A program made the translations under genes and the position numbers. 64,000 nucleotides of DNA from a phage: sequence record PV730302.1; one strand, given 5' to 3'. This document shows positions 4,012 through 63,134 of this stretch, piece by piece; the stretch's first letter is position 1; each line of letters begins with the position of its first letter. The notes beneath the pieces are model-generated. The model saw only the letters and a program-made list of their open reading frames with translations. It was not told the DNA's origin and searched no databases.

Positions 4012-5100
4012 ATGAAAGCAAAAGAAATTGACATTAATGTAGCCTCCTTGTTTAAAGGAGGCTCAAAGACCTCCGCCGGCCAGTCTAAAGCTAAACCGGC
4101 CCAAACTACAGTAATGGCCCAATACCCGGCAGAAAGGGTCTCCGGTAATGATACCTCCACAGATATGGTGTTAAGCGATTTATATAAAAACGGCTTACTT
4201 TTTACAGCGTATAATTTTAGCTCTCGTGTATCACCTGATTTGCGTAATGACCGATCAAGTCAAATGTCTAAAAAGTTTTCAAAAGCTGCTAGTAAGCTTA
4301 CCGGCAATACCGGAGGATTCAGCGCGGTTAAAAACTTGTTCAGTAATAACTCTAAGGGAGTTAAATTTGACAACCAAGCTTTGGCGAATATTTTACTCCC
4401 ACGTTCTAAATCTGACGTAGATTCGGTGTCGCATAAATTTAATGATGTCGGTGAATCATTAATTACTAAAGGCGGAGGTACTGCTACAGGTATTTTAAGT
4501 AACGTTGCAAGTACTGCAGTATTTGGTGCGTTGGAATCTGTGACTAATGGCGTAATGGCCGATTCAGGCGAGCAGATATACACCACAGCCCGTAGTATGT
4601 ATGCAGGGCCTGATAACCGTACTAAGGTATTCACTTGGGAAATGACTCCACGAAACGCCCAAGACCTTATCCAGATTATTAAAATATACGAAATCTTTAA
4701 TTACTATTCTTATGGTGAAACCGGCAACTCAGCCTTCGCTGGTGAATTAAAAGAGAAGATTGATACCTGGTATCGTTCTACGTTTAAAAAAGAAGCTATT
4801 GACAAGTTTGACGGTAAGCTATTAGGGGAAAGTATTACAAGCTTCCTTTCTAATGTTATTGTGGTAAGTAATCCGACCATTTGGTATATCCGAAACTTTG
4901 GTGATAGCAGTTCATATGATGGTCGTGAAGATATTTTTGGTCCATGCCAAATCCAGAGTATCCGTTTTGATAAAACTCCGGACGGCCATTTTAACGGATT
5001 GGCTATTGCTCCTAACTTACCATCTACGTTTAGTTTAGAAGTTACTTTCCGTGAAATCATTACTTTGAACCGTGGCTCACTTTATACGGAAGGATTCTAA
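4012..5100 (+). CDS. 48: baseplate tail-tube junction protein gp48
   Basis: 362 aa (T4 gp48 364 aa); synteny after gene 29. Confidence 0.65.
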   Translation: MKAKEIDINVASLFKGGSKTSAGQSKAKPAQTTVMAQYPAERVSGNDTSTDMVLSDLYKNGLLFTAYNFSSRVSPDLRNDRSSQMSKKFSKAASKLTGNTGGFSAVKNLFSNNSKGVKFDNQALANILLPRSKSDVDSVSHKFNDVGESLITKGGGTATGILSNVASTAVFGALESVTNGVMADSGEQIYTTARSMYAGPDNRTKVFTWEMTPRNAQDLIQIIKIYEIFNYYSYGETGNSAFAGELKEKIDTWYRSTFKKEAIDKFDGKLLGESITSFLSNVIVVSNPTIWYIRNFGDSSSYDGREDIFGPCQIQSIRFDKTPDGHFNGLAIAPNLPSTFSLEVTFREIITLNRGSLYTEGF

Positions 5101-6029
5101 TGTATACTTTACAAGAATTTCAGAACCAGGCAATTAATATTGACCTACAGAGGAATAACCTGTTTAGTGTAGTATTTGCAACGGTTCCTTCTTCTAAATC
5201 TCAAGCGCTCCTCGACCAGTTCGGTGGAGCTTTATTTAACAATATCCCATTGAATAGCGATTTGTTTGGTATTACACAAGGAGAGTTGACCCAAGGTGTT
5301 ACGACATTAGTGACAGCGGGCACTCAGAAGTTGATTCGTAAGTCAGGCATAAGTAAATATTTGATTGGAGCTATGTCATCCAGGGTTGTGCAGAGCTTAC
5401 TAGGAGAGTTTGAAGTAGGTACATATCTGATGGATTTTTTCAATATGGCCTATCCTACGGCAGGTCTTTTAGTCCACGCCGTTAAAATCCCGGATAATAC
5501 TTTGAACTATGAAATGGATTTGAACCACAACTCACCTAACATCAAAATTACCGGAAGAGAATATTCTCCATTAGTATTAAGCTTCCGTATGGATTCTGAA
5601 GCTGCTAACTACCGTGCTTTTAATGATTGGGTCAATAGTGTTCAAGACCCTATTACACAATTAAGAGCATTACCGGAGGATGTTGAAGCTGACATTCAAG
5701 TCAACCTTCATTCCCGTAATGGATTACCACATACGGTAGTAATGCTTAATGGTTGCGTTCCAATGAGCGTATCTTCCCCGGAATTATCTTACGACGGTGA
5801 TAACCAAATTGCTTCATTTGATGTTACATTTGCTTATAGAAGTGTACAGACTGGTGCAGTTGGCAAACAAGCTGCTTATGAATGGTTAGAAGATAAAGTC
5901 CTTAAAGGCGTGGCGGGTATAAGTGAGAGCAATTCCCTGAGTTCTTCAGTAGCTAAATTAAGCCGACTTTCAGGAGCTTCTAGTGGATTAACAGGATTGG
6001 TTAATAGTGGAATATCGAGGTTGTTATAA
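5100..6029 (+). CDS. 54: baseplate tail-tube initiator gp54
   Basis: 309 aa (T4 gp54 320 aa); start overlaps gp48 stop; last late gene before the strand switch. Confidence 0.65.
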   Translation: MYTLQEFQNQAINIDLQRNNLFSVVFATVPSSKSQALLDQFGGALFNNIPLNSDLFGITQGELTQGVTTLVTAGTQKLIRKSGISKYLIGAMSSRVVQSLLGEFEVGTYLMDFFNMAYPTAGLLVHAVKIPDNTLNYEMDLNHNSPNIKITGREYSPLVLSFRMDSEAANYRAFNDWVNSVQDPITQLRALPEDVEADIQVNLHSRNGLPHTVVMLNGCVPMSVSSPELSYDGDNQIASFDVTFAYRSVQTGAVGKQAAYEWLEDKVLKGVAGISESNSLSSSVAKLSRLSGASSGLTGLVNSGISRLL

Positions 6030-6034
6030 CAAAA

Positions 6035-6056
6035 AAGGAGAGCATATGCTCTCCTT
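6035..6056. terminator. perfect 22-bp palindrome between convergent genes (putative bidirectional terminator)
   Basis: aaggagagcat/atgctctcctt located 5 nt after the gene 54 stop and 8 nt before the stop of the minus-strand ORF 6064..6354. Confidence 0.5.
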
Positions 6057-6063
6057 TAGGGGT

Positions 6064-6354
6064 TTATTTACGGAACGAAATGAAACCTGCTGTGGTCATT
6101 AGTGGTTGCTTTTTAACAAACACCGTAACCGAAATAGGAGCTTCGGATTCGAGTTGTCCTGTCACTACACCGTTAAAAATGTTTTCGGTTTGTTCTGGAT
6201 AAGAAAAATTCTCAACAGGTCGGATATCAAACTGTTTGTCTTCACCGAAAACTCGACGTAATTCATTACCCACTGCACTGTCAAACTCTTCAGAAGCAGG
6301 GATAACGTTTTCAACTACCAGTTCTTGACCATTAAAACGGAATGTAGATTTCAT
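6064..6354 (-). CDS. hypothetical protein (position of T4 alt.-1/-2/-3 small ORFs)
   Basis: 96-aa ORF downstream of the alt-like genes on the minus strand. Confidence 0.4.
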   Translation of the reverse strand: MKSTFRFNGQELVVENVIPASEEFDSAVGNELRRVFGEDKQFDIRPVENFSYPEQTENIFNGVVTGQLESEAPISVTVFVKKQPLMTTAGFISFRK

Positions 6355-8538: not shown

Positions 8539-10623
8539 TTACCCTTGGATGAATTTTTCTGGGATGTCATAGAGGTCTATGCATGAAGCCAAAAGAGGCA
8601 ATACATCAAACCGTGTAGATTTAACAAATGAATCAAAAGATACAGGGCTTTCGGAAGTATCGAAGTCATCTTGATATACGACCAACTCGCCGGTTTCCAT
8701 TAGTACGTCACCATCATATACCACAGATTCTTGAAGCTCATCTGTTGTCATAACTTCAGCTTGGATGAGTTTTGTATTACTAGATGTTGTTCCATCATTA
8801 TTAGAAGCATCTGTTATTTTATTAACTTTGACCATTAATCCACGCGGTAGAATAACTTCAGCTTCAGTTGCTATTCCGAGATTTCCTGGATATACGACAT
8901 TAACTTTATGAGCTCCATCAATCGCCCATCCTATTTGAACTTTAACATAATCAGGATTTTCTTTATATGCTCTTATTTCATTAGGATTAATAGTTATTCC
9001 TTCTTCATTTTTATCGACTGTCAATTCATTACGAACTTCCGGTTCTAAAAGACCAATACCTGCGTGCGTAACACCAAAACGTCCAAAAATGATAGGAGTT
9101 AAAGAAGTAGATACAAAATTTCTGAAATAGAACACTTTATTTTTAACTAGTGCTTCGTATATAGGAGCAGTCATACTCTGGGCACGATAAACTGTAATGC
9201 CTTCTGGTATACGGTCACCATTTTCAAAAGCAGAATCCAAATTATTAACTGCGGATTCGATATCTTTTTCGCTCATAACCTCATAGTTCTGAGGATTATA
9301 ACGTCCTAAAAGAAGATTATTTATGTCTGTATATCCTGAACCACAATATTCTCTGATGCCGCGCTTTTGTGATGGGGTATATTTAGAGCCCTCACGAGCA
9401 ATAGTAATATCGACCATAATACCGCCACCCACACCAGCAAAACTATATACACGTTTTTTAATGAACTTGGTCTTGGTGGCTTTCCACTTCGCATCGGTCA
9501 ATTCATTCCAGAGGTCGTCAGGTTGGCCTTTACGAGTTTTGTTATGCCGGGCCAGCCATTCACCTTTGTATTCTTCGAAAACGGTATTAATAGCAGAGGC
9601 ATATTTTTCTAGAGCTTTAACAGATGTCAAAGGTTCGTTTTTGATGGCCGTAAGAATTTTATCTTTAATTTTCTCTTGGATTTCGCCAATACCGTGAAGT
9701 GGGAACAATTTATAGTCGTAATGCAATTCTTCAGCAGTGCCTTCAGCTACTATATTAGCAACCCTATTTTTAGCCGCAGGAGAATTGTTATTAATGACCA
9801 TTTCCTGGGCCTCAGGGATTAATGGAACTGTTGCCGGTTTATTAAAATCCGCTGCAGTAGCTTCATATTTCTTAAACAATTCACTTTCATTACGATAAGA
9901 TTCCAATGATTGGCTTGCTGCAATGGCGCGCCTAGAAATCTTAGTCTTGGTTATAACCATTTTATCAGTGCGACGTTCTTCAACCTTAGCAATACTGCCG
10001 GCAATAGCAGTTTCTTTAGTAACCTGCACACCTTCTTTTTTGGAAATATAAACTTCACCGACATCAGAATCTACCTTAGTATACAATTCAGCATTAATTC
10101 CAGGCATACCTTTGATATCTTCGATATCAGCTTGTTTACGAACTACTAAGATGTAAGTATGTTTACCGGTAAATTGGTACATAGCCGGAACCACTTTAAA
10201 ACGTCCACCGGTTTTCTGTGCTACCAAACGTTGGATAATACGTTGAACGATAGGGCCTTGACCTTTCATTTTCTTGGTAGGAAAACGGAACATCACGGCA
10301 TCCATACGAAGCTTTTTAACTTGGTCATAAACCACATCAAAAATAGTATTAATCGCATCTACAGGAGTAGGGCCAAGGCCACCTTTAAGTTCGGCTGGAG
10401 TACCTTTAGCTGAAAGGCTCATAAGGATAACGTGGGCATATTTATCACCCATTTTAACTTGTTTAATAGCATCACCTTCAGAAGCGTAGGATACCATACG
10501 AGCAACTAATTGGGATTCTGCGTCGCCGATCTTCCAAATCTGGGGTACTTTAAGTTTAGGGTTCAAGTTTACTGTAGGCAGTGTGCCTTCGGACTCAAAC
10601 ACTTCATTTAATTGTTCGGTCAT
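8539..10623 (-). CDS. alt: Alt-like ADP-ribosyltransferase, paralog A
   Basis: 694 aa (T4 Alt 682 aa); N-terminal LNEVFESEG..PKLKVPQIW resembles the Alt capsid-targeting region; C-terminal YRAQ, FVSTSL, EAEVILPRG motifs; stop abuts start of paralog B (TAAATG). Confidence 0.75.
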   Translation of the reverse strand: MTEQLNEVFESEGTLPTVNLNPKLKVPQIWKIGDAESQLVARMVSYASEGDAIKQVKMGDKYAHVILMSLSAKGTPAELKGGLGPTPVDAINTIFDVVYDQVKKLRMDAVMFRFPTKKMKGQGPIVQRIIQRLVAQKTGGRFKVVPAMYQFTGKHTYILVVRKQADIEDIKGMPGINAELYTKVDSDVGEVYISKKEGVQVTKETAIAGSIAKVEERRTDKMVITKTKISRRAIAASQSLESYRNESELFKKYEATAADFNKPATVPLIPEAQEMVINNNSPAAKNRVANIVAEGTAEELHYDYKLFPLHGIGEIQEKIKDKILTAIKNEPLTSVKALEKYASAINTVFEEYKGEWLARHNKTRKGQPDDLWNELTDAKWKATKTKFIKKRVYSFAGVGGGIMVDITIAREGSKYTPSQKRGIREYCGSGYTDINNLLLGRYNPQNYEVMSEKDIESAVNNLDSAFENGDRIPEGITVYRAQSMTAPIYEALVKNKVFYFRNFVSTSLTPIIFGRFGVTHAGIGLLEPEVRNELTVDKNEEGITINPNEIRAYKENPDYVKVQIGWAIDGAHKVNVVYPGNLGIATEAEVILPRGLMVKVNKITDASNNDGTTSSNTKLIQAEVMTTDELQESVVYDGDVLMETGELVVYQDDFDTSESPVSFDSFVKSTRFDVLPLLASCIDLYDIPEKFIQG

Positions 10624-10658
10624 AATAATTCCTCTTTAATAACCTTATTTATGCCAGA

Positions 10659-10676
10659 AAAGGCCCTAAGGCCTTT
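10659..10676 (-). other. GC-rich stem-loop between small ORF and alt start
   Basis: aaaggcc-ctaa-ggccttt inverted repeat; minus-strand RNA hairpin followed by a short U tract; possible weak terminator or RNA stability element. Confidence 0.35.
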
Positions 10677-10677
10677 A

Positions 10678-10860
10678 TTAAAGTACTAACAGCGTACGGT
10701 ACACTTCAAATTTAGGACCCTTTTCATAGCGGTCGAAATTATCTTTAAAATCGGCGAACGCGATTTCATTTTCAAATTCAAGGACAATTTGGGACACTGC
10801 AGTGGAGACATCCCCACCTTCTTTATATCCAATAACCACGGTTTCTAAATAAGCTTTCAT
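10678..10860 (-). CDS. hypothetical protein
   Basis: Track ORF 10678..10902 overlaps the ligase 3' end; internal ATG at 10858-10860 (MKAYLETVV...) sits just after the ligase stop. Confidence 0.35.
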   Translation of the reverse strand: MKAYLETVVIGYKEGGDVSTAVSQIVLEFENEIAFADFKDNFDRYEKGPKFEVYRTLLVL

Positions 10861-15215: not shown

Positions 15216-15244
15216 ATAATAACACAACCTGTACCAAAGTAAAC
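15216..15244 (-). promoter_or_regulatory. early sigma70-like promoter (GTTTAC-N17-TATTAT) with -10 in loop of a 9-bp-stem hairpin
   Basis: Minus strand: GTTTAC, 17-nt spacer, TATTAT; flanked by ggtacaggt/acctgtacc inverted repeat (15205..15235); upstream of ORF starting at 15174. Confidence 0.5.
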
Positions 15245-16883: not shown

Positions 16884-16941
16884 ATTTAATCCATATTGTT
16901 TTGTTGATAGATTAATAATAACACGCTATTCTTAAAGCATA

Positions 16942-21556: not shown

Positions 21557-21906
21557 TCTGTAATGCTCCTGAAGTCTTCTGTAAAGGAATCGAAGGACTT
21601 GTTGATTTGTTTTTCGACCAGTCCTGGCTTACTTGCCACCACGTGCGCCTTCTTCGAATCTTTACGGAGCTTTTCATTTTCTACCTTAATTTTATCCATT
21701 CGGGCATTCATTTCAGTAGTACGGAATTCAATATCCGAGTATTGGCCACGAAGGTCATCCACTGCTTCGGCATTCTGTTTGGCCGTTTGCTGGGTTGTTT
21801 TCAGTTCTTCGGTAAGGGTATCAATACGGCTTGATTGATACGAAATAAAACCGTAAGCCCCTACTGCAATGGCCCCAGCTAAAAGGTAAATACTTAATTT
21901 AGACAT
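21553..21906 (-). CDS. inner-membrane spanin (i-spanin)
   Basis: 117 aa; N-terminal TMD (LSIYLLAGAIAVGAYGFISY) followed by a charged, coiled-coil-like segment; position matches T4 pseT.3. Confidence 0.6.
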   Translation of the reverse strand: MSKLSIYLLAGAIAVGAYGFISYQSSRIDTLTEELKTTQQTAKQNAEAVDDLRGQYSDIEFRTTEMNARMDKIKVENEKLRKDSKKAHVVASKPGLVEKQINKSFDSFTEDFRSITE

Positions 21907-22394
21907 TTGGTAATAATCTCGATGATGTCATCACGTGACAGGGAATTGATAAGAACCGTTTTAGGGTTTTCACACTGGATTTTATACGTTTCGAACATAA
22001 AACATAATTCTTCAGCGGTGTGGTAAGGACTTGAAATGCCAAGGCGATTAAACTTGTCGCTTAATGGGTCGCAAATCAAATAGAACGTGATGCCTGAGAT
22101 TTTAACATTAGGCTGGCTGATGTTAATGAATACCTCGGCATCGTACTTGGAAAGGTTGTTTTGGAGAAACTCAACCATAGAGTTGACAGCTTCAGGCATG
22201 GCTTCACGCTTTTCTTCAGCATAACGGGTAGAGTATTCTTTTTGCTTGATTTTCTTTTTAGCATTTTTGGCTAAAGTAACACGAAGATCGGTCAGGTAAC
22301 CTACTGCACGAGAACCTTTAAAAACTTGGATACCGTCAGTAGAGTCACCAAAAGCCTTAACAACCATTTCGTTAGTAATCATTTGCATATTCAT
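21894..22394 (-). CDS. alc: Alc-like protein (by position and size)
   Basis: Track ORF to 22409 begins ATGAGGAGA..., which looks like the SD for the ATG at 22392-22394; about 166 aa, similar to T4 Alc (167 aa); located upstream of spanins as in T4. Sequence identity not verified. Confidence 0.35.
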   Translation of the reverse strand: MNMQMITNEMVVKAFGDSTDGIQVFKGSRAVGYLTDLRVTLAKNAKKKIKQKEYSTRYAEEKREAMPEAVNSMVEFLQNNLSKYDAEVFINISQPNVKISGITFYLICDPLSDKFNRLGISSPYHTAEELCFMFETYKIQCENPKTVLINSLSRDDIIEIITKCLN

Positions 22395-22423
22395 TTGTTT
22401 TCTCCTCATTAGTTGGTAAGTCT

Positions 22424-22452
22424 ATACTAACACAACATGAGGAGATGTAAAC
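22424..22452 (-). promoter_or_regulatory. early promoter-like element (GTTTAC-N17-TAGTAT) embedded in SD-sequestering inverted repeat
   Basis: 8-bp arms ctcctcat (22402..22409, covering the SD) and atgaggag (22437..22444, in the promoter spacer). Confidence 0.45.
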
Positions 22453-23600
22453 TACTCTACCATAATTTCTTTCAAATATTTTTCAGGGATTTGGGCTTTA
22501 TGGTTTTTCAAGAACACAGAGTTAATCTGGTCTACAACCGTATCATAATTAATGCCACCTACGTACGCCTGCATAAGAATAGAGAACAACCCTGGGAAGT
22601 CCTTAAGGATTAATTGACCTGTAACAGCGTAGTCCTTACGGTCGCGGCCCTTAAGTTGGGAGTACGCTGCTTCTAACAAGGCCAATGATTGTTCTAAGTA
22701 ATCTAAATGGATGCGTTCAAAGGCATCGATTTTCTCGATAGCAAACGAATCCGTACTGAACAGGCCACGAAGGTCGTCGGTTCCGCCAGCCACTACAACT
22801 TCAAACAAACGTTCGTTATTGTTAATGGAATCTTTGGTATGATGCAGTGCACTGTACCAGGCAGTTTTGAGTTTAAAGAACGTACCATCTTTAAGTACAA
22901 AGATGAAACCTTCAATACCCTCTTGTTTACGGATGTTTTCTACGAAATCACCTTCAGTGAGGTCATAGCTTTCAACCAAATGCTTACGCAGGGCCCCATC
23001 TTTAAACAATTCGGCATACGGAATATATTCACCTGTTTCATTATTACGAACGTTCAACAGGATGAGATTTGTTTCTTGGTAAGCCAGCACGATACGGTTG
23101 GTAGGTGCAACATATTCAAGGTTGCAGGTATACCCAGCTTTGGTGATTTCTTCCAGACGGGCAGCAAAAGCCTCGTTCTCAGGGAGACGAAGGAACCGTA
23201 AAGAATCATGCACCATTGATGAATGGATAGAGCCTTTAGATTTAACAGAAAGATACTGCCGGTCCATGAATGTAGAAATCAGAGAACCATCTTCCTTAGC
23301 CATTACGAGGTCAATATTTTCTGGTGACAAATCCAGACCGATAGTCAGTGGGTTTTCGTCGAGGTTAAAGAACTTTTGCATAGGACGAGCAGCAATACGT
23401 ACAGGACCGTTCTCGTCCATTTCAAACATAATGCCTCGGCACTCTAGTGCGCCGTCTTCCAACCAATCACTGTACGATGCATAGTTATAACTAAAGATGC
23501 GATAGTTGACTCCTAGCGCACTCTGAAAGTCTTTAAAGAAGAACTTAGATTTAGTCGAGTTTTTAACCAGGGCCATCAAGTTATCATATAATTCAATCAT
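22452..23600 (-). CDS. rnlA: RNA ligase 1
   Basis: 382 aa; YRIFSYNYASYSDW, ALECRGIMFEMD and KEDGSL (lysine adenylation motif) match T4 Rnl1 as recalled. Confidence 0.85.
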   Translation of the reverse strand: MIELYDNLMALVKNSTKSKFFFKDFQSALGVNYRIFSYNYASYSDWLEDGALECRGIMFEMDENGPVRIAARPMQKFFNLDENPLTIGLDLSPENIDLVMAKEDGSLISTFMDRQYLSVKSKGSIHSSMVHDSLRFLRLPENEAFAARLEEITKAGYTCNLEYVAPTNRIVLAYQETNLILLNVRNNETGEYIPYAELFKDGALRKHLVESYDLTEGDFVENIRKQEGIEGFIFVLKDGTFFKLKTAWYSALHHTKDSINNNERLFEVVVAGGTDDLRGLFSTDSFAIEKIDAFERIHLDYLEQSLALLEAAYSQLKGRDRKDYAVTGQLILKDFPGLFSILMQAYVGGINYDTVVDQINSVFLKNHKAQIPEKYLKEIMVE

Positions 23601-24034
23601 TGCTTTATCCTATGTTGGGTATTCCAAGGTGGATTAAATTTTTTTATGAACATTGGCTCTTCAAGAGACATGGTCTCAACTGACATAGTTCCAAGTTCGT
23701 TAGTCATCGACAGATTAAAGCACTGCCGTGCATAGAACTCTACCTTTTTACCTGCCATTAATGCTTCATGAATCAGAATGGACTTAGTCGAATCTGACGT
23801 TTGGTCCTTACGATTAATGGCTGTTCGGTAGTAGTTGATGCGCTTACGAAGATTTTTAGTCTTCCCGATGTAGACTAGTATATCATCAACCGCTATAGCA
23901 TATATGACATTTTGTTTATTTGGTACCGTAAGTGGAGCTATGGTGGCGTCATCTTGGAGTTCTAGGGTGACGTACTTGATAAAGCTAAATTCGTCTGCGA
24001 TTTCTTTCATAGCAATAAGGGGCCGAAGCCCCAT
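23597..24034 (-). CDS. denA: endonuclease II (GIY-YIG-like)
   Basis: GIY-YIG-like segment IYAIAVDDILVYIGKTKNLRKRINYYR; position between rnlA and nrdB. The first 8 codons are encoded by a GGGGC-UUCG-GCCCC hairpin, so the true start may be ATG 24008-24010 (137 aa). Confidence 0.65.
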   Translation of the reverse strand: MGLRPLIAMKEIADEFSFIKYVTLELQDDATIAPLTVPNKQNVIYAIAVDDILVYIGKTKNLRKRINYYRTAINRKDQTSDSTKSILIHEALMAGKKVEFYARQCFNLSMTNELGTMSVETMSLEEPMFIKKFNPPWNTQHRIKQ

Positions 24035-28314: not shown

Positions 28315-28380
28315 AATTTCCTCAATATGTTAGGTTCTACAATTATTCTATCATAGAACCTGTTAAGCATGGACTGATAT

Positions 28381-30762: not shown

Positions 30763-30838
30763 TTTATTCTCCGGTGTTTAGTTGTTATCTCAGTATGGGG
30801 CCATTATATCATAGCCCCATTTGGCTGTACACCACTTT

Positions 30839-33317: not shown

Positions 33318-33971
33318 TTAAAACTTACAAGATTTGATAGTTTCAATGAACAATTTACGAGCTTCTAAATTATCGATTATAAGAATTTTCTTATAAGCAT
33401 TTAATTTAGTCGAATACTTAGACCACACTAAATCGTTGGTCTGTTCATCATGTTTATTTATTATATCCATAAATGAATCAAGCAAAATAAACGTTTCGAA
33501 TGAAATAACATTCGATTGAAGGAGCTTAAAAATATAGCTCGAGTTAACTTTTTTATTATAATCAAAAATTTCAGAAAGCGCTTTAACTTCCACTTTCTTA
33601 CTAAAATAATAAATGTTTTTGATATCATCCTCAAAAACTTGTTTTATTCTTTTAAGTCTACCGATATATTCTCGGTAAAAGACTAAGGCGTCAGCATCAC
33701 TGATGTCGCCAATCCACGCGTCTTGGTTAGCCACCAAGTTACTCATGAAGATAAGAGCAAGCTCTTTCAAAGTGTATTTATCACTCAATTTCTCAAAGAA
33801 ATATTTGTCACGACGTTTTTGATAAGCCGTATCAGAGATTCGCATGACCCAGTTATATTTGATAACATCGTATTTGGCATTGAAGTGATGTTTGAGCATT
33901 AAGTATAGTGAATATACGCTCTTACCATTCACCATACGGTTATTGTTTGGTGGCATGCGAATCTTAATCAT
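33318..33971 (-). CDS. 59: helicase loader gp59
   Basis: 217 aa (same as T4 gp59); MIK.RMP, GKSVY.LYLM.K.H.N.KYDVIKYNW.MR.SD.AYQKRRDKYFF, AWIGDISDADALVFYREYIGRLK match T4 as recalled. Confidence 0.9.
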   Translation of the reverse strand: MIKIRMPPNNNRMVNGKSVYSLYLMLKHHFNAKYDVIKYNWVMRISDTAYQKRRDKYFFEKLSDKYTLKELALIFMSNLVANQDAWIGDISDADALVFYREYIGRLKRIKQVFEDDIKNIYYFSKKVEVKALSEIFDYNKKVNSSYIFKLLQSNVISFETFILLDSFMDIINKHDEQTNDLVWSKYSTKLNAYKKILIIDNLEARKLFIETIKSCKF

Positions 33972-34530: not shown

Positions 34531-35478
34531 TTAATAAAAATCAGCTACTGTAGCAGTTAGTTTAGACAAACCAGATTTAACGAAATAAGGATAGACTTTA
34601 GATTTCGAAGGTTTGTTATACGTATTATATCTTTCAGTAATTAAAGCAACAATATCATCTGGAATATAGTCCATATCAATTAAGATTTGGTTTTCACAGA
34701 AACGTTCATATTGTTCTTCAGTAAGAAGTGTTTTAATTATATCACGGTCGTAATAATTCAGAGCAATCGCTTCAAGTTCCCTGGCACGAGTGCTAGGAGT
34801 ACGTTCGCCTTCAACCATTGTCAACCAGTAGTCACCACGAACTTTAATACTCGCAACGTTATCCTTGCGGTCGCCTTTAACAACCTTAGTTACACAATCA
34901 AGCAATGCATCGCCGGATTTTGTTTTGACGAATTTTTTCTGCATTGGAGACCATTGTTTTACCCCAGGGAATTTATGAAGTTGGGTAAAGTCACCATCAG
35001 AAGAACCAATCATAACAGGGTGACCTAAAGCCGTAAGGATGCGAGTCAATACAGCAATATGGTCATCAGCTTCGATTGTATCGATATTCATAACAATATA
35101 AGGCATGTTTTGTTCCAGTTCATCAACAATAATATGCATTGCTGTGAATAAACCTTCCCAATCAAATGGTGATTCGTCACGTGCCTTAGCACGGTTTTTC
35201 TTATAATAGGAAGAATAACGACGACGCCAATAACCTGATTTGGAGTTATCAACACAAATAACCAGTTGGTTGTAACCTTGTTTTTTAAAGTCTTTAATAT
35301 TTTTCTTAATTGAATTCAACACGAGGTGTCGAAGCATTGCTGTAGTTACTTTAGGAAATCCAGCATTTTCGCCAAATTCTTGGAATGCTGCCGCCATAAT
35401 GATTTGGCTGAAATCTAAGAGTAAAAATCCATCTTTTTGTTGGTCTTCTTCAGGAAGTAAAAAATCTAAATCGTTCAT
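34531..35478 (-). CDS. rnh: RNase H (5'-3' exonuclease, FEN-like)
   Basis: 315 aa; LLDFSQI, SGYWRR..YYKKNR, EADDHIAVL, SSDGDFTQLHK..VKQWSPM.KK, KGD.KDNVAS.KVR match T4 Rnh as recalled. Confidence 0.9.
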   Translation of the reverse strand: MNDLDFLLPEEDQQKDGFLLLDFSQIIMAAAFQEFGENAGFPKVTTAMLRHLVLNSIKKNIKDFKKQGYNQLVICVDNSKSGYWRRRYSSYYKKNRAKARDESPFDWEGLFTAMHIIVDELEQNMPYIVMNIDTIEADDHIAVLTRILTALGHPVMIGSSDGDFTQLHKFPGVKQWSPMQKKFVKTKSGDALLDCVTKVVKGDRKDNVASIKVRGDYWLTMVEGERTPSTRARELEAIALNYYDRDIIKTLLTEEQYERFCENQILIDMDYIPDDIVALITERYNTYNKPSKSKVYPYFVKSGLSKLTATVADFY

Positions 35479-41306: not shown

Positions 41307-44300
41307 ATGGCTACTTTAAAATCGATACAATTTAAAAGAAGTAAAACACCAGGAGCCAAGCCTACTGCAGCTCAGTTAGATGAAGGCGAACTGGCTATTA
41401 ACTTGCGTGACCGCACTATTTTTACTAAGTCAGACCAGGGACAGATTATCGATTTGGGCTTTGCAAAAGGCGGACAAGTTGATGGCGATGTTAATATTAA
41501 CGGGACCCTGAATTTAAATGGTCCTGAAATTGTTGCCTCCGGTGGTTATATAGAATTTAACTATCGTACGACAGGTAGTGGCTCTTGGGCAGGTCAGCAC
41601 AATGCCAAAGCTCCTATTTTTGCTGATTTAAGTGCGGCTGCATCTACTTCAGAATACAACCCACTGATTAAACAACGCTTTAAAGATGGAACATTTTCAG
41701 CAGGTACACTAGTAAGCGAAGGCAGTTTTAAATTCCATTATATTAATGAAGCCGGTGATTCGAAATATTGGACCTTTAATCGTAATGGTAATTTTCAAGT
41801 TGATACTGGTGGCTTGACAGTTACAGGCGGTAGTATTTCCACTTCAGGAAACGTAGCTGCTTCCGGCTTTTTATCAGCACCACAGGTTAATAGTAAAAAT
41901 ATTATTCTTGATTCGAAAAATTTCGGACAGTATGACATCCAATCTTTAGTTAACTATGCTTACCCTGGAACAGGCGAAGAAAATGGTATAAACTATCTTC
42001 GTAAAGTTCGAGCTAAATTGGGTGGAACTATTTACCACGAAATTGCTTCTGCACAAACCGGTAAGAATGATGAAATTTCTTGGTGGACTGGGAATACTAT
42101 TAATACTAAGTTGATGGGGCTTCGCAATGATGGGGCTATGGTATTACGTCGTTCACTTGCTATTGGCACAATTACTACCGATGAAAATACTAACAACTAC
42201 GGTTCTCCTACTCCAATGGGGGAAAGATATATTGCTCTAGGCGACCCTGCCACCGGTTTAAAATATATTAAGCAAGGTGTTTACGATTTAGTAGGTAATT
42301 GGAATTCCGTTGCTTCTATTACTCCTGATAGCTTCCGTAGTACTCGTAAAGGTTTATTTGGTCGTTCAGAAGACCAAGGCGGAACATGGATTATGCCTGG
42401 AACCAATGCGGCCTTTTTATCAGCTCAAACTCAGGCTGACGGGAACCACGCTGGCGATGGTCAGACGCATATTGGTTATAACTCCGGTGGAAAAATGTCG
42501 CACTATTTCCGCGGTAGAGGTCAAACCAATATTAACACCCAAGAAGGCATGGAACTTAACCCGGGTATTCTTAAACTGGTAACCGGTGCAAATAATGTGC
42601 AGTTTTATGCTGATGGGACTATTTCTTCTATTCAACCTATTAAATTGGATAATGAGATATTTTTAAATAAATCCAATAATACTGCAGGTCTTAAATTTGG
42701 CGCCCCTAGCGGAGTTAATGAAACAAGAGCTATCCAGTGGAACGGTGGTACTCGTGAAGGACAGAATAAAAACTATGTGATTGTTAAAGCATGGGGTAAC
42801 TCATTTAATGCCGCCGGTGATAAATCTCGCGAAACGGTTTTCCAAGTATCAGATAGTCAAGGATATTATTTTTATGCCCATCGTAAAGCTCCAACCGGCG
42901 ACGAAACTATTGGACGTATTGAAGCTCAGTTTGCTGGAGCTCTTAATGCTAAAAGTATTAATGCCATCGAAAATTTTAAAGTTAATGGATTAAGCACTTT
43001 AGTCGGCGGAGTTACAATGAGCAATGGGCTTAATTTAACTGGTGGCGCCACTTTTAACGGTCAAGTTAAAATGGGTGGTACCGCTGACACATTAAGAATT
43101 TGGAATGCCGAATATGGTATGATTTTCCGACGTTCGGAATCCGGTTCTTCTGCTTCATTCCATCTTATTCCTACCCTCCAGAATGCCGGCGAAAACGGTG
43201 GAATAAGTGACCTTCGCCCGCTTTCCATTAATTTGGCCAATGGCACGGTTATAATGGGTAATAAAAGTGCTGGGTATGGTCCACTTTTTACAGTAGACAA
43301 CGTAAGTAAATTTGTCCAGACCGACTGTAGACTGCGTGTTAATATGGATTCCGACGCCATTGTGGTAAATGCTTCTTCTCAGGCGTCATCTAACTTTATC
43401 CAAGGACGTAAAGCCGATGTTACAAAATGGTATCTCGGTATTGGCGACGGTGGTAACGTTGTTCGTTTACATAACTATACTTATTCGCATGGTATTGCAT
43501 TAAACTCTGATACTGTTGATATAACCAAGGCACTTAAAATTGGTTCCGATGTTCGTATTGGTCCTGACGGTAATATTACAGGCAGCACTGCATTAGATAA
43601 CTTTAAAAACCTGAACACAACGTTAGACCGTAAAGTTAACACAGGCGGCTGGTCTGGCGGCGCTACTACAGGTTGGTATAAATTTGCTACTGTAGAAATT
43701 CCACAATCGACAGGTACAGCATCCTTTAAAATATCAGGCGGGTCTGGATTTAGTTTTAAAAGTTATGGTCAGGCTTCAATAGCCGAAATAGTCCTTAGAA
43801 CCGGCAATAATAACCCTAAAGGCCTTAATGCTACGCTGTGGAATAGAACTTCTGAAGCTATTTCTCAGATTGCTTCTGTTAATACAAGCGAAGATATCTA
43901 TGATATTTACGTTTACTTAGGTGGGTATTCTAATTCTTTGGTAGTAGAATATACATGCAGTAGCAATAGTAAAGTAACCGTAGTGGGTATTAATAGCGGT
44001 GTCCAGCCTTTGGTAGAAACATTACCTGAAGGTCATGTTGTAGGTAAATCTGTAAGAATGCTGAACAATATTGACGGAATGTTCGCTGCCGGCGAATCGG
44101 ATATTGTTACACGTGGTGAATACGTTACCAATAACCAAAAAGGTATGCGTATCAAATCCAGCGGTAATGATATAGGTTCTAATGCCGCTTTGATTAGAAA
44201 CGACGGTGGAAGTTTTTATATTTTAGTTACAGATAAAAACACGGCAGAAAACCCGAATGCAACTGACGGGTTGTGGAATGGCTTAAGACCTTTCACTATC

Positions 44301-50930: not shown

Positions 50931-51071
50931 TTACCATACTAGTGAATGAATAGCCATAATGACATCGGAAATAAAAAGCACAACTTGGATAAGTCCGAAC
51001 ATTACTCCATAATACAGCGCTACTAATAAAGCAGCAAGGGCTACCGAGCAGCCCAAGATTTTATTAATCAT
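50931..51071 (-). CDS. small hydrophobic membrane protein, 46 aa
   Basis: Track ORF starts with TTG at 51119; ATG 51069-51071 (MINKILGCSVALAALLVALYYGVMFGLIQVVLFISDV...) overlaps the upstream stop. Confidence 0.35.
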   Translation of the reverse strand: MINKILGCSVALAALLVALYYGVMFGLIQVVLFISDVIMAIHSLVW

Positions 51072-52417: not shown

Positions 52418-52528
52418 TCAGAAGTTAAAGAATACACGTACATGGTCAATCATAAAAACGATTGGGAAAATGCTCAATACCAAAAATAACACAAACATGT
52501 TCCAAATTGCTTTAAGTAAGTTTTTCAT
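52418..52528 (-). CDS. small hydrophobic peptide, 36 aa (absent from ORF track)
   Basis: MKNLLKAIWNMFVLFLVLSIFPIVFMIDHVRVFFNF; SD GGAG lies inside an 11-bp inverted-repeat arm. Confidence 0.35.
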   Translation of the reverse strand: MKNLLKAIWNMFVLFLVLSIFPIVFMIDHVRVFFNF

Positions 52529-52554
52529 AATCATCTCCATTAGTTGATATGTCT

Positions 52555-52583
52555 ATAATATCATGATTAATGGAGATGTACAC
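52555..52583 (-). promoter_or_regulatory. early promoter-like element (GTGTAC-N17-TATTAT) inside SD-sequestering inverted repeat
   Basis: Arms catctccatta (52532..52542, contains SD) and taatggagatg (52568..52578, in promoter spacer). Confidence 0.45.
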
Positions 52584-52673
52584 TGTTTTATGCCAATTTC
52601 CACAACAATAAACTAAAACATACACAAATCACTGGGATACAGGTCAACCAAATAAGGCACCACATTTTGCTAC

Positions 52674-52940: not shown

Positions 52941-53012
52941 TTTGTTTTCCTCATTAGTTGATAGGAAGATAGTAACACCATCCTTGGTGTATGTAAACAA
53001 CTTTATTAAAAA

Positions 53013-59924: not shown

Positions 59925-59976
59925 GTTATTTCCTCATGTAGTAGGAGAATATTATCCCATTTCACTTAAAGCATAA

Positions 59977-62399: not shown

Positions 62400-62426
62400 T
62401 TTGTTCTCCTCATGTTGATAGGGTAG

Positions 62427-62455
62427 ATAATATCATGCCATGAGGAGAAGTAAAC
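62427..62455 (-). promoter_or_regulatory. early promoter-like element (GTTTAC-N17-TATTAT) inside SD-sequestering inverted repeat
   Basis: 9-bp arms ctcctcatg (62406..62414, SD/start region) and catgaggag (62439..62447, promoter spacer). Confidence 0.45.
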
Positions 62456-62459
62456 ACTT

Positions 62460-63134
62460 TTATCGATTTTTTATACTTAATGGGTCGGGATTCTCAGGGA
62501 CATCTTCCAGGCCCAAGGCGTATCGTTGGGCATATTTAAGCATCAAGATATCCTTAGCACAGTCATGGATGGAGTCATGAGCAACAAAGCCGTTCAATGT
62601 TCCGTTAGGCAGAGGACACATGCTCAATCCACGAGTCAATGAATAGGCTTCGATAGCCGTACGGATGTCACGTTGGTTCCAGAATTTAACTGGTTCTAAT
62701 TTACTGGTATCAATTTCATTCTCAGGAACACCTTCAGAACGATAAGCATCGCGAATAAGGTCGACTAAGATTGGAAAGTCAAAGGACATTCCACGGCACC
62801 ACATCTGAGATTTCCATTGGTCTACTTCGTTTTTACGGCAGTATTCCAAGAAATTACCAAGGCCGATAGAAGTGGACACATCAATTTCGGATGGCGCCAG
62901 GTTTTTACGTGCTTCAGGCCCTTGCTCTTTCCACCACTGTAACGTGCTTTTAGAAAACAGACGTCTATCACGCTGAGAAGCGAGGTCAAATTTAATACGA
63001 AGGCCACGTTGAGTAAGCTCTTCAAACGTTTCTACAACCTCTGGATTGGGGTCATAAGCAATTACGGCGAGGTCGATAACCGCTGCGTTTTGGGTAGTGG
63101 CAAAGGTTTCGAAGTCAATAATTATATCTTTCAT
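62460..63134 (-). CDS. dexA: exonuclease A (DEDD 3'-5' exonuclease)
   Basis: 224 aa (T4 DexA 227 aa); N-terminal IIIDFETF (Exo I motif) and later H..HD motif; position upstream of dda. Confidence 0.8.
   Translation of the reverse strand: MKDIIIDFETFATTQNAAVIDLAVIAYDPNPEVVETFEELTQRGLRIKFDLASQRDRRLFSKSTLQWWKEQGPEARKNLAPSEIDVSTSIGLGNFLEYCRKNEVDQWKSQMWCRGMSFDFPILVDLIRDAYRSEGVPENEIDTSKLEPVKFWNQRDIRTAIEAYSLTRGLSMCPLPNGTLNGFVAHDSIHDCAKDILMLKYAQRYALGLEDVPENPDPLSIKNR

Follow-up and report, generated by a model that had tools for sequence, protein, structure and literature searches.

Inverted repeats joining early promoter spacers to Shine-Dalgarno sequences in a Dhakavirus phage and in T4: a candidate arrangement for translational insulation of early genes

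The phage DNA analysed here (sequence record PV730302.1; 64,000 nucleotides (nt), the whole of which we call the window) is that of a Dhakavirus of the JS98/IME08 group; a 2.5-kb probe matches LQ5, IME08 and JS98-group phages with 96-98% identity. Dhakavirus belongs to the T4-like Straboviridae, and the minus strand carries most of the early genes of the window. At three loci on that strand, perfect stems of 9, 11 and 11 bp with loops of 27, 25 and 24 nt join the first 9-11 nt past a T4-type early -35 hexamer (GTTTAC-like) to the GGAG Shine-Dalgarno (SD) sequence of the gene that follows. A reading made from the letters alone (the sequence-only reading) had pointed to inverted repeats at these loci and had proposed that they gate the translation of three unknown genes according to the promoter used. 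The repeats are there, and the genes can be named by homology: they are alc and the homologs of T4 ndd.4 and motB.2. All locus coordinates below are window positions, and locus sequences are read 5' to 3' on the minus strand.

Locus 1 lies between rnlA (gene 63) and alc in the IME08 annotation and reads TAG(rnlA stop)-TTTACA-TCTCCTCAT-gttgtgt-TAGTAT-agacttaccaacta-ATGAGGAGA-aaacaa-ATG(alc), with the 9-bp stem and the 27-nt loop. The product is 50% identical to T4 Alc and 97-100% identical to Dhakavirus Alc, and GTTTACA is unchanged in 12 orthologous rnlA/alc junctions. The features are:

22452..22454, minus strand: TAG, the stop codon of rnlA (gene 63), with no gap before the -35 hexamer
22446..22451, minus strand: -35 hexamer TTTACA of a T4-type early promoter, preceded by G (GTTTACA)
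22437..22445, minus strand: 5' arm TCTCCTCAT, the anti-SD, which occupies part of the promoter spacer and precedes the predicted start of transcription
22424..22429, minus strand: -10 hexamer TAGTAT with TGn extension, in the loop
22401..22409, minus strand: 3' arm ATGAGGAGA, which includes the alc SD GAGGAGA
21894..22394, minus strand: alc (inhibitor of host transcription), 166 aa, start ATG at 22394-22392

Locus 2 reads TGTA[CA-TCTCCATTA]-atcatga-TATTAT-agacatatcaac-TAATGGAGATG-att-ATG, with an 11-bp stem and a 25-nt loop, and its peptide is 58% identical to T4 Ndd.4 (E = 1.6e-10):

52577..52582, minus strand: -35 hexamer TGTACA (TATACA in relatives)
52568..52578, minus strand: 5' arm CATCTCCATTA, made of the final 2 nt of the -35 and 9 nt of spacer
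52555..52560, minus strand: -10 hexamer TATTAT, preceded by TGA, in the loop
52532..52542, minus strand: 3' arm TAATGGAGATG, which includes the SD GGAG
52418..52528, minus strand: gene for a 36-aa hydrophobic peptide, the T4 ndd.4 homolog, start ATG at 52528-52526

Upstream of locus 2, a 25-codon hydrophobic open reading frame (ORF; MWCLIWLTCIPVICVCFSLLLWKLA, 52588-52665, minus strand) stops 5 nt short of the -35; some close relatives (loci L025-L027 and L032) have ACG in place of its ATG, and its coding status is doubtful.

Locus 3 reads TTTAC[T-TCTCCTCATG]-gcatga-TATTAT-ctaccctatcaa-CATGAGGAGAA-caaa-ATG, with an 11-bp stem and a 24-nt loop, and its product is 69% identical to T4 MotB.2:

62460..62462, minus strand: stop codon TAA of the dexA-like gene, 5 nt upstream of the -35
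62449..62454, minus strand: -35 hexamer TTTACT
62439..62449, minus strand: 5' arm TTCTCCTCATG, made of the final nt of the -35 and 10 nt of spacer
62427..62432, minus strand: -10 hexamer TATTAT, preceded by TGA, in the loop
62404..62414, minus strand: 3' arm CATGAGGAGAA, which includes the SD; GGAGAACAAAA fits the RegB consensus GGAGRAYARAA
61890..62399, minus strand: gene of 169 aa, the T4 motB.2 homolog, start ATG at 62399-62397, following the dexA-like gene

At each locus the 5' arm begins at the 3' edge of the -35 hexamer (TTTACA, TGTACA and TTTACT) or 1-2 nt within it, extends into the 16-nt spacer and ends 7-11 nt from an extended -10 element (TGn plus TAGTAT or TATTAT). Both the -10 hexamer and the transcription start predicted from the consensus fall inside the hairpin loop, and between the upstream stop codon and the -35 there are 0-5 nt. 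The complementarity to the region between the -35 and -10 that had been claimed from sequence is perfect, the 5' arms being spacer plus, at loci 2 and 3, 1-2 nt of the -35. The partner arm had been said to cover both the SD and the start codon; it covers the SD but not the start, since homology to Alc, Ndd.4 and MotB.2 indicates that the ATGs within the arms are not gene starts and that the real start codons lie 7, 4 and 5 nt 3' of the arms at loci 1, 2 and 3. Of the coordinates first given, 52532..52578 was exact, 22402..22444 fell 1 nt short of the repeat at both ends, and 62406..62447 has been extended to 62404-62449. The sequence after the 3' arms is A-rich (aaacaaATG, attATG and caaaATG at loci 1, 2 and 3), and A-rich tracts also lie upstream of the -35, for example ataaaaaatcgataaaagtGTTTACT at locus 3. 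No terminator-like site was called between the upstream gene and the promoter at any of the three loci, and both the late promoter motif TATAAATA and a MotA box are absent from them.

When the window was scanned for perfect coding-strand stems that include an SD and a start, with loops of 10-45 nt, only loci 1-3 had stems of at least 9 bp, and at a threshold of at least 8 bp they were joined by one 8-bp match near 43200. A second test took the 103 window starts that are led by an SD: 3 are perfectly complementary over at least 9 bp to the region upstream of them, with 0.32 expected (300 permutations of the upstream regions, maximum 2), a null that is inflated because loci 1 and 3 have similar arms. 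Other long inverted repeats of the window lie within coding sequence and are unrelated (I20, I21, I25 and I12), and a further one (I14) is a bidirectional terminator. A search of the whole window with Rfam 15 at the gathering score gave 0 matches, and a tRNA scan of the window gave none.

Predicted folds support the idea that the two kinds of transcript differ. Fold z-scores against dinucleotide shuffles are -4.7, -3.5 and -5.1 at loci 1, 2 and 3. With 70 nt of upstream context, the predicted minimum free energies of the read-through RNA are -21.6, -19.1 and -19.5 kcal/mol, and the SD core has unpaired probabilities of 0.21, 0.00 and 0.02. The mean predicted unpaired probability from SD to AUG is 0.15-0.37 in read-through RNA versus 0.58-0.85 in RNA from the proximal promoter, modelled as starting about 7 nt past the -10. 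The expectation that the SD would be buried in the former and open in the latter, which lacks the upstream arm, is therefore what the folding predicts. For the established SD-blocking hairpins of T4 the same pipeline gives -14.9 (e), -10.9 (soc), -17.9 (49) and -20.7 kcal/mol (I-TevI); by these predictions, the stabilities of the three loci equal or exceed those of the proven blockers.

The complementarity is conserved in related phages, and it is maintained by compensatory changes. All three T4 orthologs (alc, ndd.4 and motB.2) have spacer-to-SD pairing, with arm sequences that differ from those of the window. At the T4 rnlA/alc junction (GTTTAC-AAGTCC(C)TCGTG...CATGAGGACTT-tatgATG) there are 11 pairs with one bulge and one G.U, the latter converted to A-U in one T4-like alc variant; the SD flank is GAGGACTT in T4 and GAGGAGA in the window, and the spacer arm has changed to compensate (AAGTCC versus TCTCC). 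The arms are CTGTTCTTCC / GGAGGAACAG at T4 ndd.4, in a spacer register different from that of locus 2, and TCCTCGGTTAG / CTACTGAGGA at T4 motB.2, the latter also present at loci L020-24. A search for further lineages of loci 2 and 3 found none beyond Dhakavirus and T4-like phages. For alc we compared 24 Alc loci from IMG/VR, in which lineage-specific arms include TCCTCATTTTGTTG / CAACAAAATGAGGA (14 bp), ACCTCTCATTTT / AAAATGAGAGGT (12 bp), TCTCCTCATG / CATGAGGAGA and TCTCCTCAG / CTGAGGAGA, together with TCTCCGTTTAGTT / AACCAAACGGAGA and TCCCCGTTTGGTTG / CAACCAAACGGAGA, which have one mismatch each.

In an alignment of the 10 distinct pairing lineages of alc, registered by hand with artificial anchors (plain MAFFT lost the structural register of the 3' arm), 87.2% of cells are paired, compared with 67.1 +/- 2.5% in shuffles and 40-45% when the partner is slid by 1-3 columns. 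Pairs changed on both sides number 12 of 15 (shuffle mean 6.0; slid 1-5), and the covariation score is 0.49 (shuffles 0.16; slid 0.06-0.10); 0 of 500 shuffles reached any of the observed values. In comparisons inside the genus Dhakavirus, the loops vary at 22 of 76 sites, whereas neither the 5' arms nor the 3' arms vary at any of their 31 sites (Fisher p = 4.8e-7 with the two arms pooled, 3.4e-4 with only the 5' arms counted). The 5' arms were compared over 6, 4 and 6 relatives at loci 1, 2 and 3, and we know of no other constraint on them. Finally, the mismatches in 23 stems lean to G.U on the mRNA strand (10 G.U versus 3 A.C, p = 0.046), a bias that modestly favors selection on RNA over a DNA palindrome.

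The three loci are not isolated cases. We surveyed 61 pairs of an early promoter and an SD-led start, from the window and from T4, for the duplex energy between each -35/spacer and its own SD. The energies are bimodal, with a strong class at or below -11 kcal/mol made up of the three window loci and T4 alc, ndd.4, nrdC.8, regB, denV, alt.-3, motB.2, mrh.2 and 30.8; in this class the cognate spacer ranks 1-3 of 61 for its own SD, except at mrh.2 (7 of 61). The regB pairing is kept in four lineages with four different arm sets: TTTTCCTCTTGAC / GTTAAGAGGAGAA in T4, TTCTCCTCTAGTTG / CAACTAGAGGAGAA in L079-81, TCTCCTGTAAG / CTTACAGGAGA in L083/84 and TCTCCTGTAG / CTACAGGAGA in IME08. IME08 nrdC.8 also retains pairing, and 4 of the 18 cassettes in a 40-kb IME08 segment are SD-type. 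Among 50 confident cassettes, about one quarter are strongly SD-type, about one fifth have strong 12-15 bp hairpins spanning the -10, some 7 have small hairpins internal to the spacer (CCACaaggatGTGG type) and the remainder have none. SD-type pairing thus characterizes about one quarter of the early promoter cassettes in T4 and Dhakavirus, and the sequence-only reading should be broadened from three loci to a conserved class. More tentatively, and as a possibility we would not lean on, the T-even phages may hold a large undescribed class in which roughly one early promoter in four carries an anti-SD spacer arm, the gene can be translated only from its own promoter, and the outcome is a sharp immediate-early pulse (alc, regB, ndd.4, nrdC.8, motB.2), possibly aided by RegB.

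Several observations concern the other cassettes. Hairpins spanning the -10, in which the spacer pairs with the sequence just past it, occur on the minus strand at the promoters with -35 at 15243, 30831, 21161, 61341, 51839 and 35537; examples are TTTGGTACAGGT / ACCTGTACCAAA (12 bp, perfect, 15243-15202) and ATGGGGC...GCCCCAT at 30831. Their z-scores are about -3 to -4, they match a published sub-class of the PeSL stem-loops described below that overlaps the -10, and T4 has many equivalents. Small hairpins internal to the spacer are found at the minus-strand -35s at 52997, 19202 and 6411 and have a recurring form (ACACCaaggatGGTGT, CACCaaggacGGTG, CCACaaggatGTGG); the motif also occurs at T4 promoters, and it substitutes for the SD-type stem at the alc junction of a metagenomic relative (L045). 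About 10 early promoters share a cassette consisting of GTTTACa, 16 nt ending in TGn, TAnTAT, the leader AGACCTATCAACTAATGAGGA and ATG (minus strand, for example at 22451, 52582, 49454, 49130, 32268, 31562, 52997 and 47088), and identical arms occur at non-orthologous genes (T4 denV and IME08 regB; T4 alc and T4 alt.-3). The shared leader and arms suggest cassette copying or recombination, as has been proposed for PeSLs. Some start codons at such cassettes appear to be miscalled in databases: IME08 regB (L085, NC_014260) is annotated from well upstream of its promoter-SD cassette, and IME08 denV and T4 ndd.4 (L037) are annotated from an ATG that overlaps the SD (ATGGAG...) and not from the SD-led ATG a few codons downstream.

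There is precedent in T4 for hairpins of this design. At gene e, a helix that contains the SD lowers lysozyme synthesis 100-fold, and translation does occur on transcripts whose 5' end falls within the hairpin (PMC3014915). Established cases of a hairpin that masks the SD and encloses a promoter are T4 e, soc, 49 and I-TevI; I-TevII/III, Aeh1 mobE and segB have been proposed as further ones (PMC3014915). The likeness to e and I-TevI that had been noted from sequence holds for the geometry: at the established T4 genes, as at the window loci, the SD would lie in a helix on RNA initiated upstream, and transcripts from the internal promoter are without the 5' arm. It fails for the promoter class. 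The T4 blockers (-11 to -21 kcal/mol for the late genes, against -19 to -22 at the window loci) depend on promoters of the late (gp55, TATAAATA) or middle type and restrict expression to late times, whereas the window loci have early sigma-70 promoters (GTTTAC, 16 nt, TGnTAnnAT), place the 5' arm in the -35/-10 spacer and are predicted to be expressed from their own early promoter only. Also, a handful of T4 late genes stands against a class of about one quarter of early cassettes, which is known here from sequence and predicted folds. Because the embedded promoter is early rather than late, the temporal logic would be inverted: own-early-promoter-only, not late-only.

We favor the possibility that the repeats act as translational insulators, so that these genes are translated essentially only from their own early promoter; we consider this probable, though far from certain. 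According to this model, transcription entering from rnlA, from the genes that precede the ndd.4-like gene or from the dexA-like gene would copy both arms. With both on one RNA, a stem would form, its 9-11 bp supplemented by inner pairs to give about -19 to -22 kcal/mol, and would bury the SD. A read-through transcript, be it delayed-early, middle or late, would then not be translated efficiently into the product of the gene. RNA from the embedded promoter would begin about 7 nt past the -10, that is, within the loop, and would have a free SD for want of the 5' arm. The dose of the gene would not be summed from upstream promoters, synthesis would end when the early promoters shut off, and the exposed GGAG might then also be cut by RegB, itself an early protein in T4 (T4 time-resolved omics paper). 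If upstream transcription is middle or late, the gene would in addition be expressed in the immediate-early period only. The promoter-dependent gating proposed from sequence alone was right in geometry and, on the predicted folds, is probably right in mechanism.

The model depends on RNA that reads through from upstream genes. Motifs resembling MotA-box middle promoters (TGCTTnA, 11-13 nt, TAnnnT) number 15 in the window versus 3.4 expected, and 0 of 100 shuffles reach 15; the enrichment implies, as far as motifs can, T4-like middle-mode transcription in this phage. Read-through RNA is plausible because the middle promoters are enriched on the minus strand. Most of the sites lie on that strand, for example at 16915-16939, 28345-28369, 33460-33484, 34624-34648, 51009-51033 and 59949-59973. 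Near the nrdB/denA boundary (24019-24032, minus strand) there is a hairpin GGGGCTTCGGCCCC with a UUCG tetraloop, followed by TTATTGCTAT. It is a possible terminator or RNA-stabilizing stem upstream of denA-rnlA, and it would limit, but probably not abolish, read-through toward locus 1.

A number of points weigh against translational insulation. At locus 1 the rnlA stop is 6 nt from the 5' arm, and a terminating ribosome could open the outer pairs that hold GGAGA, giving a leaky block or coupling. Locus 2 has an early promoter (52997) as its nearest upstream one, so that its gating would set dose and not timing. The covariation at alc is biased by hand registration and by the inclusion of pairing lineages only. 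Moreover, 4-5 alc lineages do without SD pairing and have instead a local hairpin in the spacer or across the -10 or -35 (L045, L059, L053/58 and L049/54/62), and denV of Dhakavirus (IME08) is not SD-type; selection may therefore favor a promoter hairpin generally and not SD masking specifically. The translational effect itself, at the window loci and at the T4 orthologs, is one that we infer from sequence and predicted folds.

The swaps at alc bear directly on an alternative in which the hairpin acts on the transcript or the polymerase and not primarily on ribosomes. PeSL cassettes, described in RB49 and phi1, consist of a strong early promoter with a stem-loop between the stop codon and the SD, and have been proposed to be terminators or attenuators as well as recombination sites (PMC2839356, Arbiol et al. 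2010). A PeSL-type insulator could attenuate read-through, hold back 3' exonucleases and thereby set the 3' terminus of the upstream message, or, past a masked SD, allow Rho to terminate untranslated RNA; masking of the SD would be merely one of several interchangeable stem positions. The resemblance is considerable: the order of stop codon, AT-rich region, strong early sigma-70-type promoter, stem-loop, SD and ATG is the same, both kinds of cassette are repeated in early and hyperplastic regions of T4-type phages and show signs of copying, and the idea of insulation from upstream transcription is common to both. One PeSL stem-loop cut lacZ as strongly as rrnB T1, PeSL-like sequences have been noted in JS98, other early promoters of the window and of T4 carry strong hairpins across the -10 or in the spacer, and the local hairpins that replace the SD-type stem at alc in some lineages suggest functional equivalence. 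However, the five stem positions described for PeSLs (upstream of the -35, over the -35, in the spacer, over the -10 and before the start site; PMC2839356) are all local, and the stems have G/C tracts (often GGGG...CCCC) and are proposed to terminate transcription. The window stems connect spacer and SD over the intervening -10 and start site, which is none of the five positions; they are based on CTCC/GGAG, are not of the GC-rich type, enclose 24-27 nt loops and have no U tract after their 3' arms, and no terminator-like site was called at the loci. The PeSL-like local hairpins over the -10 and within spacers belong to other promoters of the window. A generic roadblock would also not need a 3' arm that always sits on the SD, reached through many independent sequence solutions and spacer registers, nor pairing that is specific to the gene and conserved between genera for alc, ndd.4, motB.2, regB and nrdC.8. 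We regard a PeSL-type insulator as unlikely. An intrinsic (Rho-independent) terminator was rejected given the missing U tract, the 24-27 nt loops and the A-rich sequence past the 3' arms.

Three further explanations seem to us less likely still. The stem could serve translational coupling, masking the SD until a ribosome that finishes the upstream gene melts the 5' arm, so that downstream translation is proportional to upstream translation. The distance from stop codon to 5' arm is 6 nt at locus 1 and 9 nt at locus 3, as it is at locus 2 provided that the 25-codon ORF is genuine; such distances are near the reach of a terminating ribosome, and the outermost pairs hold the GGAG. Yet this distance varies from 6 to 23 nt among alc orthologs (23 nt in L056), the 5' arm keeps its position relative to the -35 hexamer rather than to the stop codon, some relatives lack the start of the small ORF that precedes locus 2, and the anti-SD of T4 ndd.4 and nrdC.8 is set far into the spacer, with no stop codon within 15 nt. 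Coupling is, in our view, improbable. We give a slightly poorer chance to a shield against RegB, in which the stem hides the GGAG from the endoribonuclease on polycistronic RNA and spares read-through messages. RegB/S1 sites in T4 early SDs follow GG*AGRAYARAA, RegB needs single-stranded RNA and is blocked by structure, and the T4 motB.2 SD is cut by RegB (PMC3014915, PMC1702504); all three window SDs contain GGAG, and at locus 3 GGAGAACAAAA is an exact fit to the strong-site consensus. Such sites, though, are set by sequence and single-strandedness with no partner arm, loci 1 and 2 fit the consensus poorly, and T4 denV has the stem even though its GGAG is RegB-resistant for want of an A-rich tail. 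The pairing is conserved where the SD is without GGAG (T4 alc GAGGAC, L046 GAGGAU, L057 GAGAGGU), and as a general explanation the shield was rejected because stems persist where GGAG is absent. Least credible to us is that the repeats have no function in RNA, being by-products of shuffled promoter cassettes in which a CTCC-rich box by the -35 meets a GGAG SD, or DNA-level inverted repeats for recombination or protein binding. Early promoters do share the leader AGACCTATCAACTAATGAGGA, several spacers begin TCTCC, TCTGC or ATCCC, the identical arms at non-orthologous genes point to cassette copying, and PeSLs are proposed recombination sites. But the pairing reaches well past CTCC/GGAG into covarying flanks that are particular to gene and lineage, the loops diverge around arms that do not vary, mismatches lean to G.U on the sense strand, all strong-class members but one have a cognate spacer that ranks in the top 3 of 61 against their own SD, and the arms of different loci are too different for a single DNA-binding protein.

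Translational insulation would extend the SD-masking trick, previously described for a few late genes, to the early genes alc, ndd.4-like and motB.2-like. If such gating does take place, the control of T4 early genes gains a general post-transcriptional layer, in which protein output depends on which promoter made the RNA; it would explain why some early proteins cease to be made while RNA across their genes is still produced from upstream or middle promoters, and how mobile promoter-gene cassettes stay insulated from their neighbours. Should the wider class also behave in this way, densely stacked early cassettes would avoid cumulative expression, and host-takeover and potentially toxic genes would be expressed in a sharp pulse. 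The arrangement also suggests a compact natural design for insulated promoter-ribosome binding site parts. For annotation, ATGs within the arms are easily miscalled as starts (IME08 regB and denV and, apparently, T4 ndd.4). The T4 orthologs (alc, regB, ndd.4, motB.2, nrdC.8 and denV) make the idea directly testable in the best-studied phage. While the principle is familiar, its breadth, the covariation and the fact that T4 itself has it seem not to have been reported earlier; in the literature searched, which did not extend to the older T4 literature or the 2003 genome review, we came upon no early promoter whose spacer is said to pair with the SD, so an earlier account is possible.

Two other structures of the window have some resemblance to the repeats discussed here. 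At about 10623-10700 (minus strand), an 8-bp complement (ACTTTAATA / TATTAAAG) ends at the SD of a 694-aa ORF and brackets a terminator-like GGCCttagGGCC-tttt hairpin, and this may be another SD-masking design. A perfect 12+12 palindrome at 6034-6057 (AAAGGAGAGCAT / ATGCTCTCCTTT), flanked by T and A runs, lies between the convergent ORFs 5100..6029 (plus strand) and 6064..6354 (minus strand); despite its SD-like and ATG-like strings, it resembles an ordinary bidirectional intrinsic terminator.

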